NCBI GenBank assembly: GCA_045541375.1
Contig: JAZQJB010000042.1
Span: 981 to 64,980 of the forward strand
Reading direction: 5' to 3'
DNA length: 64,000 bases
DNA from: Eubacteriales bacterium
Lineage (GTDB): Bacteria; Bacillota; Clostridia; Oscillospirales; CAG-272
Both the position numbers and the translations under genes were made by a program. Within the stretch, counting starts at the first letter, position 1, and every line of letters starts with the position of its first letter. The notes beneath the pieces were generated by a model, which was given only the letters and a program-made list of their open reading frames with translations, searched no databases and was not told where the DNA came from. Below, piece by piece: positions 38,156 through 45,538 of this stretch.

Positions 38156-38497
38156 ATGGGACTTGAGAATAAAAGATTCGCCAAAAACGATTCGGGATTC
38201 ATCTGCGGTCATTGCGGACGCGAGGTAAAGCCCCTCGGCTCGTCCTCGCGCAACCATTGCCCGTTTTGTTTGTGGTCGATACATATCGATGAAAACCCCG
38301 GCGACCGCGCTTGCGAGTGCCTGGGGCTAATGGAGCCCATCCTCGTCGAGCCCGACCCGAAGAAGGGATACATCATCACGCACAAGTGCACCAAATGCGG
38401 TGCTGAAAAGCGTTGCCGCGCGGCGCACGAGGCTCGCGTTCAGCCCGATGACATGGATCTTCTCATAAAACTGACGGCAGGAAAGGACAGATACTGA
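38156..38497 (+). CDS. RNHCP domain protein (zinc-ribbon)
   Basis: Literal SSRNHCPFCLWSIH motif plus CGHCG and CTKCG. Confidence 0.85.
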   Translation: MGLENKRFAKNDSGFICGHCGREVKPLGSSSRNHCPFCLWSIHIDENPGDRACECLGLMEPILVEPDPKKGYIITHKCTKCGAEKRCRAAHEARVQPDDMDLLIKLTAGKDRY

Positions 38498-39816
38498 TGA
38501 CTATCAAATTCACCCCCGGCGATTGGAGCGGAGCTCTTGAATGGAGCGCCGTACCGAACGCCGAAAACTACGATATTTACCTCAAATATTCCGATTCTAT
38601 CCGCGATTTCAAATGCGTTGCCGAGAATATTGCCGAAACGACAGCTACCGTCGGTCTCGATTACGCGCGCAAGGCAGAAATCTACGTTGTTGCGAAGAAG
38701 AATGGCAAGACGATTGCCGAAAGCGAACACATAATCGGCAAATCAAACGGTGTCCGTGCGAATGACTGTATGGTGCGCGACGGTAAGCTGCGCTATTTTA
38801 TGCCCCGGATGACCCACATGCTTGCAAGCCTTTTCACCGCAAACGGCGAGATCTGGGTCTGCGACTCGGGACTTTCGAAGGGCGGTCAGGCACTTGACGA
38901 CTACCTTATGGACATTCGCCGCAAAGCCGCCGCAGAGCTTGGAATCGACGAGTCAGACGAATCACTGAAGATCGCAATTAACGCCAGTCTCTCTCACTAT
39001 CACAGCGACCATATTGCGGGAATGTTCAAGATAATGATGAAGAACCCCTTCATTGCGATCGAGAAGATCTACATCTCAACCCCCGAGACCGACCCCGAAA
39101 TGCGCCATTTTACGGGCAACAACGTCACTTGGCTCAAAGCCATCGACGAATACTTGCCCGGCAAGAGCACGTTTTATTACGAAGTTCCGTGGGGCAAGCA
39201 CGTCCGCCTCGATCTTGAAAACATCGACGCGGTGCTCGATCTTTACCCCGCATTCGAGGATCATACCACGATCTATCTCAAGGAAGACGGAACGCCCGAC
39301 TATTCGCGCGGCTTCTGGAACATCGTTGCTCTCCGCGACGAGGCTCACGCAAAGGTTCTCGCGCAAAATTACAACTCGACCTGGATGGTTATCCGTTACG
39401 GTGAAAACTCGATCTTCATCCCCGCCGATTATTCGGGCTTCGACGATACCTGCCTCACTCCCACCCTCGACTATTACGGCCGCGAGAATTTTGAAAACAT
39501 CGACATCCTCACCTATCCGCATCACGGCGTCGCGCGTTTCTCGCCCATGCTGACTGACGTTACGAAGGCGAAATATACTGTCTTTATGGGCGGGCTCGAG
39601 GAAATGCTCGGTCAGCCGCGCTCGGTGTTAGCTCTCCGATATTGCGAGGCTGCGGGCTCAAAACTCCTCTGGACCGACAGAGCAGCCTTCACCGCCATTC
39701 TCGACGGCAAGAATGTCACCATCGACCGCGATCCCGACGAATGGCCGGATACATCAAAGGTAGAGGTCTCAAAGCAACCCGTGAATTTCAGCGAGCTGAA
39801 GCAATATCAAAATTAA
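38497..39816 (+). CDS. Metallo-beta-lactamase-fold hydrolase
   Basis: HYHSDH (HxHxDH) motif. TGATG coupling to the RNHCP gene. Confidence 0.7.
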   Translation: MTIKFTPGDWSGALEWSAVPNAENYDIYLKYSDSIRDFKCVAENIAETTATVGLDYARKAEIYVVAKKNGKTIAESEHIIGKSNGVRANDCMVRDGKLRYFMPRMTHMLASLFTANGEIWVCDSGLSKGGQALDDYLMDIRRKAAAELGIDESDESLKIAINASLSHYHSDHIAGMFKIMMKNPFIAIEKIYISTPETDPEMRHFTGNNVTWLKAIDEYLPGKSTFYYEVPWGKHVRLDLENIDAVLDLYPAFEDHTTIYLKEDGTPDYSRGFWNIVALRDEAHAKVLAQNYNSTWMVIRYGENSIFIPADYSGFDDTCLTPTLDYYGRENFENIDILTYPHHGVARFSPMLTDVTKAKYTVFMGGLEEMLGQPRSVLALRYCEAAGSKLLWTDRAAFTAILDGKNVTIDRDPDEWPDTSKVEVSKQPVNFSELKQYQN

Positions 39817-40062: not shown

Positions 40063-40093
40063 ACCTACGAAAGCAAAGGAGGTGATGATAGGT

Positions 40094-40579
40094 ATGGATT
40101 ACGAAAAGCTTTATACCGCCTATTATATGCAGGTGTATTCGTATATTCTCTCGATCGCGCGCAACCGCGAGTTGGCAGAGGAGATCACGCATAACACATT
40201 CTATAAAGCAGTTACCGCAAAATCAGGCTTCAAAGCCAAATCCGACGAATTGACGTGGCTTTGTTCGATCGCAAAAAATCTTTACTATGATGAAATGCGG
40301 AAGGAAAGGCGCATAGTGGATATCAGCGAAGCCGCAGAACTGCCGTCCGACGAGAACATGGCACAGTCGGTAGCCGATTCGGATATGGCATTCCGCATTC
40401 ACCTCGTACTGCACCGCCTCGACGAGCCCTACAAAGAAGTGTTCCAGCTTCGAGTTTTCGGCGAGCTTTCATACGCGCAGATCGCCGAGATCTTCGGCAA
40501 ATCCGAAACCTGGGCGCGCGTTACCTATCATCGTGCCAAGCTTAAAATTCAAGAAAGGATGAAAGAGAAAAATGAGTAA
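40094..40579 (+). CDS. ECF-type RNA polymerase sigma factor
   Basis: Regions 2 and 4 (ELSYAQIAEIFGKSETWARVTYHRAK). AAAGGAGGTGAT SD. Alternative starts at 40082 and 40085. Confidence 0.85.
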   Translation: MDYEKLYTAYYMQVYSYILSIARNRELAEEITHNTFYKAVTAKSGFKAKSDELTWLCSIAKNLYYDEMRKERRIVDISEAAELPSDENMAQSVADSDMAFRIHLVLHRLDEPYKEVFQLRVFGELSYAQIAEIFGKSETWARVTYHRAKLKIQERMKEKNE

Positions 40580-41270
40580 AGAATGCGACGTTGTACGCGA
40601 CCTGCTCCCCCTTTACGTTGACGGAGCCTGCAGTGAGGCAAGTGCGAATATGATACGGAATCATATAGCCAACTGCACCGAATGTTACGCGATTTTTCAA
40701 GAATTGTGTTCGGAAACAAACGAAGCACTACTCAAAAAGGAAAAAGAGGGTATACTTCAAAGGCACGAAAAAAAGGAAAAAAGCAAAAGAATCAAAAAGA
40801 ACGTCTTGATCGTTGCGGCGGCTTTGAGTATATTTTGCATCGCAATTTATCTTGTCGGTTTTATAAACATAGTCAAGATCTGGTACAGAGAGTCGGATGT
40901 ATATTCAATAGAGGAACGCAAAGAGGCTACCGAGGCAATCAAAGAACAATTCAATCTCGGTGATCCCACGCGTAACGCCCCCTATGCAATTTCGTCGGAA
41001 ATTCACTCCATAACCTATACAACCGACGAAATATGCCGTGAAAGCCTCGAATTTTGCAATTCATTTGGAAAGGTTTACGAAGAATGTATGGTTTTCCAAG
41101 TCAGAATCGCCTTGGAAAAATGGGGTTGGAATTACACATGCCACGACGAGACCTGGTATCTTATAAAGACAGAAGATGGTGAGTGGAATGTTCTAACCGC
41201 AAGGATGGAGCTATTCTTGGACGTTTGGGACATCCCGTTGAATAAATTCAAAAAGCTTCCGGAAAAATAA
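40572..41270 (+). CDS. Anti-sigma factor with a zf-HC2 (ZAS-like) domain and one TM segment
   Basis: HIANCTECYAIF (Hx3Cx2C), TM segment VLIVAAALSIFCIAIYLVGF. Overlaps the sigma gene stop. Confidence 0.8.
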   Translation: MSKECDVVRDLLPLYVDGACSEASANMIRNHIANCTECYAIFQELCSETNEALLKKEKEGILQRHEKKEKSKRIKKNVLIVAAALSIFCIAIYLVGFINIVKIWYRESDVYSIEERKEATEAIKEQFNLGDPTRNAPYAISSEIHSITYTTDEICRESLEFCNSFGKVYEECMVFQVRIALEKWGWNYTCHDETWYLIKTEDGEWNVLTARMELFLDVWDIPLNKFKKLPEK

Positions 41271-41523
41271 ACCGATTCTGCATACATCACTTAGCGCTAA
41301 CGAATTATTTCGCGCTAATTCTTAGCACCACGCCCGCTAAGTGCAATGCTGTTGACTTAAAAGTTAACGGCATTGAAGCGATTTTTGGCTTAAGGTAAAA
41401 ACTCACTGAGATAATTACATTTTTACCAAACTTTTTCATGCTGATATACACTATATAAGCGAGCGTGCAATTTCTCTTTTCTCAACTCAACAATAAGTTG
41501 AGTCGCAAATTTGCCCCAAAGTA

Positions 41524-41552
41524 TTGACAAAAGCCGCGCGGAGTGGTAAAAT
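41524..41552 (+). promoter_or_regulatory. Promoter TTGACA-N17-TAAAAT for the leader peptide and ABC exporter operon
   Basis: Hexamers at 41524-41529 and 41547-41552. Confidence 0.7.
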
Positions 41553-41581
41553 TAGTGCAATAAAAAGAAAGAAAGGAGGAA

Positions 41582-41653
41582 ATGAATATGAAAACACAGA
41601 CACGAAGTGCTCTTGCCGGAATAGTCTTTTCCTCCGGATATATATGCGCATAG
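41582..41653 (+). CDS. Candidate leader peptide, 23 aa (MNMKTQTRSALAGIVFSSGYICA)
   Basis: AAAGGAGGA RBS. Lies between promoter 41524..41552 and terminator 41674..41707, upstream of ABC exporter genes. Confidence 0.45.
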   Translation: MNMKTQTRSALAGIVFSSGYICA

Positions 41654-41673
41654 GATAATTGCGCGTACAAAGA

Positions 41674-41707
41674 GAGCACACGTATTCAAAATGTGTGCTC
41701 ATTTTTT
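41674..41707 (+). terminator. Intrinsic terminator/attenuator between the leader ORF and the ABC exporter genes
   Basis: Stem GAGCACAC (41674-41681) pairs with GTGTGCTC (41693-41700), then ATTTTTT. Located 23 nt before the RBS of the gene at 41731. Confidence 0.7.
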
Positions 41708-41730
41708 ATGGTCACACGAAAGGAGGCAAT

Positions 41731-43668
41731 ATGAGTACAATCGAAAAAGATAAAGAAAACCTCTCCGACGGCGCGGCGGAGGAGGTCAAGACAAAGAAAG
41801 AGATCCGCGCCGAAAAGCGCGCGAAGCTGAAAAAGGAAAAGGAAGAAAAGAAGAAAAAACGACTCCCGCTGAGGCGGAATATAGATAATAACATCTTCGC
41901 CCTCGCGCAGGTGTGGGGAACTTCGAAGTCGTATTTTATCATCTACTACCTTATGACCTTCCTCAACGCGCCGCTTGAGTTTTTGCTCTACACCTACCTC
42001 ATCCGACTGATCGTTGACAGCGTCGAGGGTGTGGGATGGTCGATCGACGCGATCTTCGCCTACATCTTCATCGTCGGCGGCGCGGCTATACTGATCTGGA
42101 TCGTTTCAAATTATTATTGGAACGCCATCTCGGGCATCTACTCCGAGAAGATCAACCACGCTCTGCGGCGCAAGCTCTACAAAAAGGCGACAGAGGTCGA
42201 TCTTGCTTGCTACGAAACGCCCGAGTTTTACGACAAATACGTCAAGGCGATGGACGAAACGCAGGAGCGCGTCCGCAAGGTCATGCAGACTCTTGATAAC
42301 CTCATCTGGAACATCATCACTCTTGCGATGACATCGTTCCTCATCTTCACGATCGATCCCTTCCTCATCGTCTTTGCGCTTATCCCGCTCCTTCTCGGAT
42401 TCGTCCGCAGAAAGGCAAACGTTCTGAATCACGATCAGAATTCCGAGCGCAAGCCGATTAACCGCAAATTCTCCTACGTCCGCCGCACCTTCTACCTCGG
42501 CGAATACTCGAAGGAGATGCGAATGGGCTCATTCTTCCCGCGCCAGCTTCAAATGCTCTCGGAGGTTCGCAAGAATTACAACGACCTGACGAAAAAGTAC
42601 GGGCCGAAACTCGCGATCTGCGATTTTATCAAGAATTTCGGACTTGAAGCTGTCACAGTCCTCGGCGCGACGCTTTATGCCGTATGGCGCACGATCGGCG
42701 ACGGTCAGGGCGGAATGACGATGGGCGACTGCCTTATCGTCCTCAACTCGATATCGAGCATATCCTACGCCCTTTCGACGATGGTGCAGTACCTCGCCGA
42801 GTTCAACGAGCACGCGCTTTACATCGAGGACGTGCGCTACTTCCTCGCTTATGAGCCGACGATCAAAGAGGATCCGGACGCTCCCGAGGCAAAGAAGGGC
42901 AACATCGAGTTCAAAAACGTACATTTCAAATATGAGGGCGCGGAAAAGGAATCATTGAAGGGCATCAATTTCCGAATTGCCGACGGCGAGCGCATTGCAC
43001 TTGTCGGACGCAACGGCAGCGGAAAGACCACCCTTGTCAAGCTCCTTCTCCGACTCTACGACCCCACCGAGGGCGAAGTCACTCTGAACGGCAAGAGCGC
43101 GAAGGATTATCGCCTTTCCTCCTGGCGAGCACTCTTCGGAAGTGTCTTTCAGGACTTCAAGCTCTTCTCGCTTTCGGTCAAGGAAAACGTCCTTCACCGT
43201 CTCCCCCGCGAGGGTGACGACGAAGCCGTGACCGAGGCACTCAAGGAGAGCGGCGCGTGGAGCAAGATCGAAACGCTCGAGCACGGCATTGAATCGACGA
43301 TGACCCGCGAATTCGACGATGAGGGCGTCAACCTCTCGATCGGAGAGCAGCAAAAGGTCTCGCTCGCGCGGATCTTTGCCGAAAAAACGCCCGTTGTCGT
43401 TCTCGACGAGCCCTCAAGCGCACTCGACCCGATCGCGGAGCACAAGATGTTTGAAAACATGATAAAGGCGACCGAGGGAAGAAGCGTCATCTTCATCTCG
43501 CACCGCCTTTCCTCCGCCGTGCTTGCCGACCGCGTCTATATGATGGAGGACGGCGAGATCATCGAGGAGGGCACGCACCACGAGCTGATGGAGAAGAACG
43601 GCAAATACGCCGAAATGTTCCACCTTCAGGCTAAAAACTATACGTCGGGAGGTGAGGACAATGGCTAA
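41731..43668 (+). CDS. ABC exporter, fused permease/ATPase half-transporter, subunit 1
   Basis: Six-TM domain plus NBD. Walker A GRNGSGKTT, signature variant LSIGEQQ, Walker B VVVLDEPSSALD. AGGAGG RBS. Confidence 0.9.
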   Translation: MSTIEKDKENLSDGAAEEVKTKKEIRAEKRAKLKKEKEEKKKKRLPLRRNIDNNIFALAQVWGTSKSYFIIYYLMTFLNAPLEFLLYTYLIRLIVDSVEGVGWSIDAIFAYIFIVGGAAILIWIVSNYYWNAISGIYSEKINHALRRKLYKKATEVDLACYETPEFYDKYVKAMDETQERVRKVMQTLDNLIWNIITLAMTSFLIFTIDPFLIVFALIPLLLGFVRRKANVLNHDQNSERKPINRKFSYVRRTFYLGEYSKEMRMGSFFPRQLQMLSEVRKNYNDLTKKYGPKLAICDFIKNFGLEAVTVLGATLYAVWRTIGDGQGGMTMGDCLIVLNSISSISYALSTMVQYLAEFNEHALYIEDVRYFLAYEPTIKEDPDAPEAKKGNIEFKNVHFKYEGAEKESLKGINFRIADGERIALVGRNGSGKTTLVKLLLRLYDPTEGEVTLNGKSAKDYRLSSWRALFGSVFQDFKLFSLSVKENVLHRLPREGDDEAVTEALKESGAWSKIETLEHGIESTMTREFDDEGVNLSIGEQQKVSLARIFAEKTPVVVLDEPSSALDPIAEHKMFENMIKATEGRSVIFISHRLSSAVLADRVYMMEDGEIIEEGTHHELMEKNGKYAEMFHLQAKNYTSGGEDNG

Positions 43669-45538
43669 AAAGCAAAAGGAAAAGCGCCAGTCGCTCGGAA
43701 GGATCCTGCGAAACAACGTCGTCCTCTTCGGCAAGGTCTGCAGATACACCCCCGAGCTCGTGCTTCTCAGCTTCCTCATCGAGGGCGTATTCCTCGGAGT
43801 AAACAACGCCGTTTACGGTGTTTTTACCCTCAATCTCTTCAACGCACTCGACCGCGGCGACCCGCTTGAGGACATCGTCAAGATCATCGGCTTAATGGCT
43901 CTGTGGTATGGAGTTTACTTCATCATCGAGCGCACCTATCACCGCGTGGTCAAGCCGAATCTCCACCACAAGCTCGATTACCATATCCACACCGAGCTGT
44001 TTATGAAGACAAAGGAGATCGACGTTGCCTGCTATGATGACCCCGAATTCTACAACGACTTCGTCTGGGCGATGGACGAGGCATCCTCGCGCTCGCTGAA
44101 GATCCTTGCCGATCTCAACACACTCGCGGCGCGTGTCATCGCTCTTGTCACCATTCTCGGAACGCTGATCGCGGCGGATATCGATATGGTCGTCATCTAC
44201 GTTGTCTGCGGAATGGGCGTTGTTGGTTGCGTTGTCAACTATTTCGGCAACAAGATCGGCTATAAGCACGAAAAAGAGAAAAAACCGCTCAACCGCAAGC
44301 GCGATTATCTCAACCGCGTCTATCACCTTCCCGACTACGCCAAGGAGATACGCACGGGCAGCGTCAGCGATCTGCTCCTCCGCGAAGCTGATTCGAACAA
44401 CGAGGACAGAGTAAAGCTTGCAAAGAAATACGGAATCAAGTATTTCCTGATCTACGGCATCTTCTATAACGTCTTTATGGAGGCAGTTCGCCTCGGGATC
44501 ATCTTCTACCTGCTGCTTCGAATGCTCGACGGCGCGATCCTTGTCGGAGTTTTCGCCGCGAGTGTCGGACTTATCTGGCGAGTCGAGTGGAACATCACCG
44601 ATTTCGTCGAGCGCGTTGCCAAATTCCCCGAGCACTCGCTCTTCCTCGAGAAGTATTATGGATTCCTCGAATACGAGCCGAAGGTAGTGAGCGGCGAGGT
44701 CAAAGTGCCCGCATTTGAGTCGCTTGAACTCAAAAACGTTTCTTTCACCTATGATTTTTCGGACAAACCGAAGTATCAGTGGCACAAATCCGACCACAAG
44801 AAGCCGAAAAACGAGAACAGCGGCAGTGCCGATGCCTTGAAGGGAATTGATCTGAAGATCGAAAAGGGCGAAAAGATCGCCATCGTCGGCTACAACGGCG
44901 CGGGCAAGACCACGCTCATCAAGCTGCTTATGCGCCTTTACGATCCCACATCGGGCGAGGTGCTCTATAATGGCAAAAGTGCGAAGGAATATGATCTTTC
45001 GGCATACCGCAACAAGATCGGATGTGTCTTCCAGGACTACAAGATATTCGCCACCACGGTTGCGGAAAACGTAATGTCGGGCGCGTATGACGAGGAAAAA
45101 GATTCAAAAACAGTCGCCGATTCCCTCGAAGCCGCTGGCTTTACCGAGAAGCTGAACACCTTAAAACTCGGCACGAATACGATGCTCACGCGCGAGTTTG
45201 ACAAAAAGGGCACCAATCTTTCGGGCGGCGAAAGCCAAAAAGTCGCCATCGCCCGCGTATTCGCCCGTCCCTACGAGCTCTGGATAATGGACGAGCCCTC
45301 AAGCGCACTCGACCCCGTCGCCGAGTACGAGCTGAATCAGTCTATCCTCAAATACGCCGAGGGCAAGACGGTAATCTTCATCTCCCACCGCCTTTCGACC
45401 ACCCGTATGGCAGACAGGATCTATATGTTCGATTCCGGCAAGCTCTGCGAGGTCGGCTCCCACGACGAGCTGATGGCGAAAAACGGAAAATACGCCGAGA
45501 TGTTCAATCTGCAGGCGGAGAAATATGTTTCGCAATAA
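43661..45538 (+). CDS. ABC exporter, fused permease/ATPase half-transporter, subunit 2
   Basis: Walker A GYNGAGKTT, canonical signature LSGGESQ, Walker B LWIMDEPSSALD. Overlaps the subunit 1 stop. Confidence 0.9.
   Translation: MAKKQKEKRQSLGRILRNNVVLFGKVCRYTPELVLLSFLIEGVFLGVNNAVYGVFTLNLFNALDRGDPLEDIVKIIGLMALWYGVYFIIERTYHRVVKPNLHHKLDYHIHTELFMKTKEIDVACYDDPEFYNDFVWAMDEASSRSLKILADLNTLAARVIALVTILGTLIAADIDMVVIYVVCGMGVVGCVVNYFGNKIGYKHEKEKKPLNRKRDYLNRVYHLPDYAKEIRTGSVSDLLLREADSNNEDRVKLAKKYGIKYFLIYGIFYNVFMEAVRLGIIFYLLLRMLDGAILVGVFAASVGLIWRVEWNITDFVERVAKFPEHSLFLEKYYGFLEYEPKVVSGEVKVPAFESLELKNVSFTYDFSDKPKYQWHKSDHKKPKNENSGSADALKGIDLKIEKGEKIAIVGYNGAGKTTLIKLLMRLYDPTSGEVLYNGKSAKEYDLSAYRNKIGCVFQDYKIFATTVAENVMSGAYDEEKDSKTVADSLEAAGFTEKLNTLKLGTNTMLTREFDKKGTNLSGGESQKVAIARVFARPYELWIMDEPSSALDPVAEYELNQSILKYAEGKTVIFISHRLSTTRMADRIYMFDSGKLCEVGSHDELMAKNGKYAEMFNLQAEKYVSQ

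Follow-up and report, generated by a model that had tools for sequence, protein, structure and literature searches.

A putative ribosome-dependent transcription attenuator upstream of a heterodimeric ABC exporter in uncultured gut Clostridia

The subject of this analysis is the leader region of a pair of ATP-binding cassette (ABC) half-transporter genes on contig JAZQJB010000042.1 of an Eubacteriales bacterium (GTDB CAG-272; assembly GCA_045541375.1). The window analysed is a 64,000 nt stretch of this contig (positions 981 to 64,980), to whose first letter all coordinates refer; the genome is metagenome-assembled, 2.86 Mb in size and 82% complete, and the closest relatives that bear a name are uncultured Clostridia/Eubacteriales of the ruminant gut. 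All parts of the leader locus were located by direct reading of positions 41300-41900 together with mechanical scans, and the genes and RNA elements given below lie on the plus strand. A sigma-70-type promoter occupies 41524-41552 (TTGACA-17-TAAAAT, with an extended -10 TG) and matches at 11 of 12 positions in the scan; judging by promoter spacing, transcription would begin near 41559. This is followed by a Shine-Dalgarno (SD) sequence, GGAGG, at 41575-41579, by a small open reading frame (ORF) and by an intrinsic terminator at 41672-41707, which consists of a 10 bp stem (41674-41700), a spacer A and a T-run (41702-41707), and whose hairpin alone folds at -15.3 kcal/mol. Only 23 nt separate the terminator from the ATG of ABC subunit 1 (41731-43668, 645 aa), and this gap holds the SD of that gene (GGAGG, 41722-41726), where the sequence GAAAGGA is invariant in our alignment of relatives. 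The gene for ABC subunit 2 (43652-45538; 628 aa from a GTG at 43652, or alternatively starting from an ATG at 43661) overlaps that of subunit 1 at 43652-43668. The promoter, SD, short ORF, terminator and overlapping half-transporter genes named in a preliminary description of this DNA were thus each found where it had placed them, and the complementarity that it noted between GTGCTCT (41607-41613) and AGAGCAC (41673-41679) can be read directly in the sequence.

In a scan of the 2 kb from 40500 to 42500, the site at 41524-41552 was the only strong promoter-like sequence on the plus strand, with none found after it. As no promoter fits into the 23 nt gap between terminator and pump, the pump genes would therefore be transcribed only by read-through, and a transcript starting at ~41559 would have to pass the terminator stem and T-run (41674-41707) before reaching them. 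Taken in full, the leader gives a more stable fold than shuffled versions of itself (z = -3.7).

Orthologous loci in relatives were gathered by protein searches, and the module of promoter, SD, ORF and terminator was present before every pump ortholog of at least 79% identity for which upstream sequence was available. The mini-ORF, whose conservation upstream of orthologs the preliminary description had set as the test of its own reading, is kept at this level of identity. A covariance model built from 11 variants detected the leader in 12 of the 38 genomes of the genus, in one copy each and always directly upstream of the orthologous ABC pair; when run over 150 genomes of the order, it returned only matches of E ~0.005, none of which was near an ABC ortholog. 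A pattern scan of metagenomes produced nine contigs, with one true member (L132) among them as the 13th variant, and the final alignment comprises 13 distinct variants. Of the 11 whose upstream flank entered an alignment, ten keep both TTGACA and the -10 box, the deviating sequence being L017. At 66% identity, within the same genus, orthologs have a different 5' region that lacks the ORF. A search of Rfam over 41200-42000 gave a lowest E-value of 0.18 and a top score of 22.6 bits, with all matches far below gathering scores.

The leader ORF was originally described as having 23 codons, beginning at the first ATG (41582) and translating, over 41582-41653, to MNMKTQTRSALAGIVFSSGYICA. The existence of a short frame at this place stands, but its proposed start does not fare as well: the ATG at 41582 lies only 2 nt from GGAGG and is replaced by TTG, CTG or GTA in relatives. 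A second ATG, at 41588, stands 8 nt away from the SD and is the same in all 13 variants, with variation starting right behind it. Because the ATG at 41588 combines invariance with this spacing, and the one at 41582 has neither, the conserved start is likely to be the second, giving an ORF of 21 codons plus TAG (41588-41653, MKTQTRSALAGIVFSSGYICA), to which a start at 41582 would add MN. The in-frame stop falls in a single alignment column in all 13 variants, the sole change in ORF length is a 3 nt deletion in L017 that keeps the frame, and the end of the ORF lies 18 nt before the terminator arm.

Three hairpins, which we term P1, P2 and the terminator, were seen in both the minimum-energy fold and the alignment fold, and jointly they have 89% of their cells paired over the 13 variants. 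In P1, the 5' strand (41575-41582, GGAGGAAA) includes the SD of the leader itself, and is paired in the minimum-energy fold with an anti-SD within codons 14-16 of the ORF (41628-41635, UUUCCUCC). The resulting duplex has an energy of -12.9 kcal/mol; its seven pairs are invariant in 13 of 13 variants, and the TTCCTCC of the anti-SD does not change while the codons flanking it do. P2 (41643-41667, -10.3 kcal/mol) carries the leader stop codon in its loop, has 83.7% of its cells paired and shows two pairs with changes on both sides. The terminator helix is paired in 90.8% of cells, and its 5' arm (41672-41679, termed E) is common to the terminator and to the alternative, antiterminator pairing that had been proposed for this locus.

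The 5' strand of that antiterminator, segment B (41607-41614, GUGCUCUU), spans codons 7-9 of the ORF, and its duplex with E consists of 8 bp, including one G-U pair, at -13.0 kcal/mol. The B:E pairing is kept in the relatives. Its 6 bp core, GUGCUC:GAGCAC, is invariant in 12 variants, whilst L017 exchanges this core for GCUUUCAAUG:CAUUGAGAGC in the same columns and L016 lengthens the helix by compensatory changes (GTGCTCTCAC:GTGAGAGCAC, also written GUGCUCUCAC:GUGAGAGCAC); in both of these variants the helix reaches 10 bp with different letters. Across the alignment, 78.5% of B:E cells are paired, compared with 25-66% in slid registers, and three pairs have changed on both sides. Covariation amounts to 0.099 versus 0.061 in shuffled alignments, a value reached by none of 500 shuffles. 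Folds in which the start region is masked reveal a further hairpin, X (41616-41637, CCGGA...UCCGG, -6.5 kcal/mol), as a branch of the antiterminator junction, at the apex of which stands P2. The UCC of X is common to the anti-SD, so that X and P1 draw on the same strand, and X-like hairpins occur in relatives with shifted registers (CCCG:CGGG in L012 and GGAAU:AUUCC in L016).

Within its 21 codons the ORF takes in B, X, the anti-SD and one half of P2, and it is in these bases that its conservation is found. The residues that are kept in the peptide, S/R-A-L and S-S-G-Y-I-C, are encoded by helix-forming bases, with both serine codons always TCC TCC; beyond this the peptide is not conserved, and the conserved bases are those forming RNA pairs. 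The comparison of variants suggests that the frame is probably translated without the peptide sequence itself being under selection, which argues against both an exported peptide and a specific arrest peptide.

For the folding models, the transcript of each variant was cut in the terminator loop, which represents the RNA present when the decision is made. Without a mask, the probability of B:E was at most 0.21 in nine of the 13 variants, and P1 was the minimum-energy structure in those whose folds were printed. When a mask of -15 to +15 was placed around the ATG, this thermodynamic model gave the antiterminator a probability of 1.00 in 12 of 13 variants and of 0.67 in L017, and the predicted fold became a three-way junction of B:E, X (CCGGA:UCCGG) and P2. 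A comparison of leader folds with and without masking had been suggested in advance, and in these models the fold predicted with the start masked is the antiterminator in the same 12 variants. Masking codon 8 brought the antiterminator to p = 0, and with the last codon masked B:E had p ~0 in 12 of 13 variants (0.43 in L128), P1 being back in the printed folds. In a codon-by-codon scan, mean sequestration of the terminator arm was 0.97 for codon 1 and 0.96 for codon 2, fell to ~0.3 for codons 3-13, rose to 0.55-0.76 for codons 14-20 and was 0.27 for codon 21; in these models the terminator is thus regained with a ribosome at codons 3-13 or at the last one.

Taking these observations together, we consider it reasonably probable that the leader is a ribosome-dependent transcription attenuator controlling a heterodimeric ABC exporter. 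The RNA would adopt one of three mutually exclusive states, namely P1, the antiterminator junction (B:E with X and P2) or the terminator. P1, which includes the SD of the leader, is proposed on the basis of the folding models to be the anti-antiterminator: it would remove the strand needed by X, and the terminator would follow wherever P1 has formed. With no ribosome on the leader, P1 would form and transcription would end. A ribosome that completes the 21 codons would sweep through B, X and P2, after which P1 would re-form, again leading to termination. A ribosome arrested on the start codon, or on codon 2, would instead occupy the SD but leave B free, since B starts at +20 from the ATG; the junction could then form and sequester the terminator arm, and polymerase would read on into the pump genes. 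Stalling over the anti-SD, at codons 14-20, may work too, as a weaker alternative. By analogy, the signal is probably impaired translation, for example by drugs that trap initiating ribosomes as in vmlR of Bacillus subtilis, and P2 may act as a pause hairpin, a role modelled on SL-2 of that system. The original suggestion that ribosome position on the leader could choose between two structures is thereby supported by conservation and, in silico, by the folding models; of the switch as it was first drawn, the B:E pairing holds, but the SD:anti-SD helix P1, which is deciding in these models, had been missed.

Several observations weigh against this interpretation. The seven pairs of P1 are invariant, so that they offer no covariation test, and a conserved helix is inseparable from an obligatory GGAGG. 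The 13 variants all come from one subclade of one genus, with the covariation in B:E deriving mainly from two lineages. The coding signal is weak: codon periodicity is absent outside the helices, where entropy at codon positions 1, 2 and 3 is 0.94, 0.78 and 0.84, and in 12 of 13 variants the +2 frame is open as well. Periodicity and frame openness were set aside as uninformative, and the case for translation therefore rests on the SD, the ATG, the stop codon and the one frame-keeping deletion. In the unmasked folds, four of 13 variants already favour the antiterminator. When the interior of the ORF was shuffled, 5% of the shuffles equalled the real sequence in how well they sequestered the terminator arm, a result of moderate significance only. 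Finally, folding was thermodynamic rather than kinetic, and in the uncut, full-length RNA the terminator is favoured even when the start is masked, which means that the switch must work kinetically, as attenuators commonly do.

The same conservation pattern could also be produced by a switch made of RNA only, a riboswitch or protein-bound leader in which a ligand or protein stabilizes or opens P1, with the ORF being incidental and GGAGGAA/UUCCUCC merely a helix. Conservation at the nucleotide level does coincide with the helices, P1 is invariant, and the absence of codon periodicity and the open +2 frame are what such a switch would lead one to expect. Against it stand an invariant ATG 8 nt from a consensus SD with variation directly after it, an in-frame stop aligned in 13 of 13 variants, a deletion that keeps the frame, and the fact that B starts exactly at the footprint edge of an initiating ribosome. 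Moreover, there was no match to an Rfam family, the 45 nt loop of P1 is highly variable and has no conserved pocket-like junction, and a range restricted to one subclade within a single genus is more in keeping with leader-peptide attenuators, which evolve fast, than with RNAs that bind ligands. We regard this explanation as rather unlikely, and we give still less credence to the leader being a gene in its own right, encoding either a peptide of 21-23 aa or a small RNA of ~150 nt with its own promoter and terminator. In the peptide variant of this idea, a signal or bacteriocin-like product would be exported by the pump, with a leaky terminator fixing the peptide-to-pump ratio, as happens in lantibiotic operons. 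The strong promoter, the strong SD, the terminator right behind the ORF, the ABC exporter after it and the C-terminal SSGYIC common to most variants would all suit such a gene. Most positions of the peptide, however, show non-synonymous changes, and the residues that are shared are encoded by bases of P1, X and P2, with invariant TCC TCC serine codons in which there is no synonymous change. There is no double-glycine leader, the transporters are without a C39 peptidase domain and reach no bacteriocin-exporter family cutoff, and no modification or immunity genes lie nearby, whilst the covarying pairing between ORF and terminator arm would be left without a role. A stand-alone gene is as such very improbable.

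A closer competitor in kind is an attenuator in which the productive stall comes late, at codons 14-20 or at termination, in response to inhibitors of elongation or termination or through arrest at the ...SSGYIC end; this is the version that the preliminary description implied. Masks at codons 14-20 do free B and block P1, with mean sequestration as given above and values over 0.9 in several variants, and the conservation of ORF length and stop position is not strictly needed by a pure start-codon sensor. The effect is inconsistent between variants, however, being 0.01-0.5 in L012, L039, L132 and L040, and B and E would have to pair across the bound ribosome. RNA pairing accounts for the conserved C-terminal residues, and the prediction for the start-codon window is uniform, at p = 1.0 for 12 of the 13 variants. 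We therefore consider a late stall as the main trigger to be improbable. A tentative combination of the two, which we think possible yet doubtful, is a sensor with two windows, in which P1 is kept open from the SD side by a ribosome trapped at the start, or from the anti-SD side by one that stalls at codons 14-20; both would activate the pump, and normal translation would erase the antiterminator.

With regard to known systems, the attenuator that we favour is an uncatalogued sequence family exerting a type of control that is already well known from bmrBCD and vmlR, and is a homologue of neither. Its nearest working analogue is the leader of B. subtilis vmlR, for which it is established that a stalled initiating ribosome triggers a three-hairpin switch (PMC9226507, Takada et al. 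2022). Both leaders have, in this order, an anti-antiterminator with an upstream ORF, an apex hairpin of the antiterminator and an intrinsic terminator (PMC9226507), such that P1, P2 and the terminator correspond to SL-1, SL-2 and SL-3. When a ribosome is detained at initiation in vmlR, it obstructs the anti-antiterminator at its base and so gives rise to the antiterminator (PMC9226507), which is the behaviour predicted here. The toeprint of the initiating 30S subunit was reported at +16 (PMC9226507), and B begins just past this point, at +20. The likeness is one of logic only, implying no sequence similarity and not amounting to homology, and there are clear differences. The upstream ORF of vmlR has three codons (Met-Ile-Asn) and lies inside SL-1 (PMC9226507), whereas that described here has 21; the vmlR SD is single-stranded before SL-1, whereas here it forms one strand of the anti-antiterminator; and the gene downstream of vmlR's leader encodes a soluble ABC-F protein rather than membrane ABC half-transporters. 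Furthermore, SL-4 sequesters the SD of the regulated gene in vmlR, and no convincing hairpin covers the SD of the pump. The only candidate for an equivalent was a weak duplex between the anti-SD and the pump SD (-8.9 kcal/mol), which we rejected.

For bmrBCD it is established that an ABC exporter pair is subject to leader-peptide attenuation (PMC4191407, Reilman et al. 2014), and it was with bmrB-bmrCD that the locus had initially been compared. That analogy is upheld for the class of genes and for the logic: in both cases a leader ORF, which in bmrB is translated, is co-transcribed with a heterodimeric ABC exporter pair and the ribosome is, or here would be, the sensor, and a terminator, an antiterminator and an anti-antiterminator are present (PMC4191407). 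It does not extend to the architecture, in which vmlR is closer. The bmrB ORF encodes 53 aa and holds all three structures inside its coding region, at nt 60-162 (PMC4191407); here the ORF has 21 codons, the terminator lies beyond the stop codon and the SD is within the anti-antiterminator, features that keep this leader outside the bmrB family. bmrBCD is additionally controlled at its promoter by AbrB, to which a candidate operator palindrome described below may provide a parallel. As in the classical attenuators (E. coli trp, and the ermK/cat type), the position of a ribosome on a short ORF would pick the antiterminator or the terminator, with full translation and no translation both leading to termination. 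Unlike these, the leader has no run of codons for a single amino acid, and so does not serve to sense one; a conserved arrest-peptide motif is absent; and the productive stall is predicted at the start codon and not inside the ORF.

The two pump genes are adjacent and each encodes a half-transporter with a membrane and a nucleotide-binding domain, an arrangement in common with heterodimeric ABC exporters. Pfam recognizes ABC_tran in both proteins, and ABC_membrane in subunit 1 only, below the gathering score. No NCBIfam model reaches its cutoff for either protein, and matches in the PDB are to generic ABCB-type exporters, the best bacterial one being TM288, with nothing specifically BmrCD-like; a specific identity for the pump was rejected on these grounds. 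In degenerate-site heterodimeric ABC exporters, the catalytic Glu after Walker B or the His of the H-loop is lost in the partner subunit. This loss, which characterizes exporters of the TM287/288, BmrCD and LmrCD type, was not seen: Walker A, the Asp-Glu of Walker B (D-E-P-S) and the His of the H-loop (S-H-R) are retained in the one subunit and in the other. The claim of an asymmetric heterodimer accordingly survives in respect of the signature motif, which is LSIGEQQ in subunit 1 and LSGGESQ in subunit 2, but not in respect of the Walker B Glu and H-loop, which are intact in both. The LS[IV]GE of subunit 1 is kept in most orthologs, some of them at ~43-48% identity, and subunit 2 has LSGGE. 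Subunit 1 also begins with a Lys/Glu-rich N-terminal tail of ~45 residues (41731-41880, …KTKKEIRAEKRAKLKKEKEEKKKKRLPLRR…), which varies in length and sequence among orthologs; similar lysine-rich tails were found in orthologs at 50-60% identity.

Upstream of the promoter, ~65 nt before the predicted transcription start, lies a perfect palindrome, ACTCAAC-AATAA-GTTGAGT (41485-41503). Ten of the 11 leader variants for which the flank was part of the alignment retain it, L017 being without it, and it is the only copy in its own genome, where the looser pattern CTCAAC-N5-GTTGAG matches one other, unrelated site. The motif TCAAC-N5/6-GTT was present in 23 of 40 ortholog upstream regions, across genera, compared with none of 40 reversed controls (the regions include L019-L026, L029, L041, L044, L046 and L053). 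Where a TTGAC follows downstream, the gap between motif and TTGAC is either 1 nt or 22-23 nt, two positions that differ by two helical turns, and L041 has both. From this pattern of sequence conservation, the palindrome is probably a candidate binding site for a transcription factor, and would represent a second layer of control.

Further upstream, positions 38156-39816 encode an RNHCP-domain protein of 113 aa followed by a protein of 439 aa (orf439) for which there is no Pfam or NCBIfam match, the stop and start codons of the two overlapping. Both proteins are found upstream of the leader in relatives at 83-99% identity. Between orf439 and the leader, in this genome only, lies a pair of genes for an extracytoplasmic function (ECF) sigma factor and a zf-HC2 anti-sigma factor (40082-41270). 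In relatives where the genes concerned were found, the leader has upstream of it the RNHCP gene, with or without orf439, and the sigma pair is missing. To judge from this gene order, the pair seems to have been inserted recently, and in this genome alone, and as such was rejected as a regulator of the leader.

Beyond the genus, several pump orthologs at 43-58% identity are preceded by unrelated leaders composed of a short ORF and a terminator. A strong intrinsic terminator lies upstream of the ABC pair in L045, L043, L047, L048, L051 and L057 (43-59% identity, other genera), and most of these leaders also contain a short ORF (21-30 codons) behind an SD; L057 has no short ORF other than one that sits inside the terminator. 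On comparison of these sequences, leaders that appear to be of the attenuator type recur before this pump family, are non-homologous and turn over fast.

The findings described here introduce no new principle, as the class of mechanism is established from bmrBCD and vmlR. If our interpretation is true, they would extend the set of switches coupling ABC exporters to ribosome state by an attenuator family not yet catalogued, and one of compact design, in which the leader's own SD serves as one strand of the anti-antiterminator. The covariance model can be used for annotating relatives, and the pump is flagged as probably inducible and possibly drug-responsive. As the source organisms are uncultured Clostridia of the livestock gut, feed and veterinary antibiotics that target the ribosome are a plausible selective pressure. 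Should the two-window sensor prove true, a single exporter would answer two mechanistic classes of translation inhibitor and, if the phase-conserved operator is also real, would respond to a separate transcription-factor signal in these ruminant-gut Clostridia.

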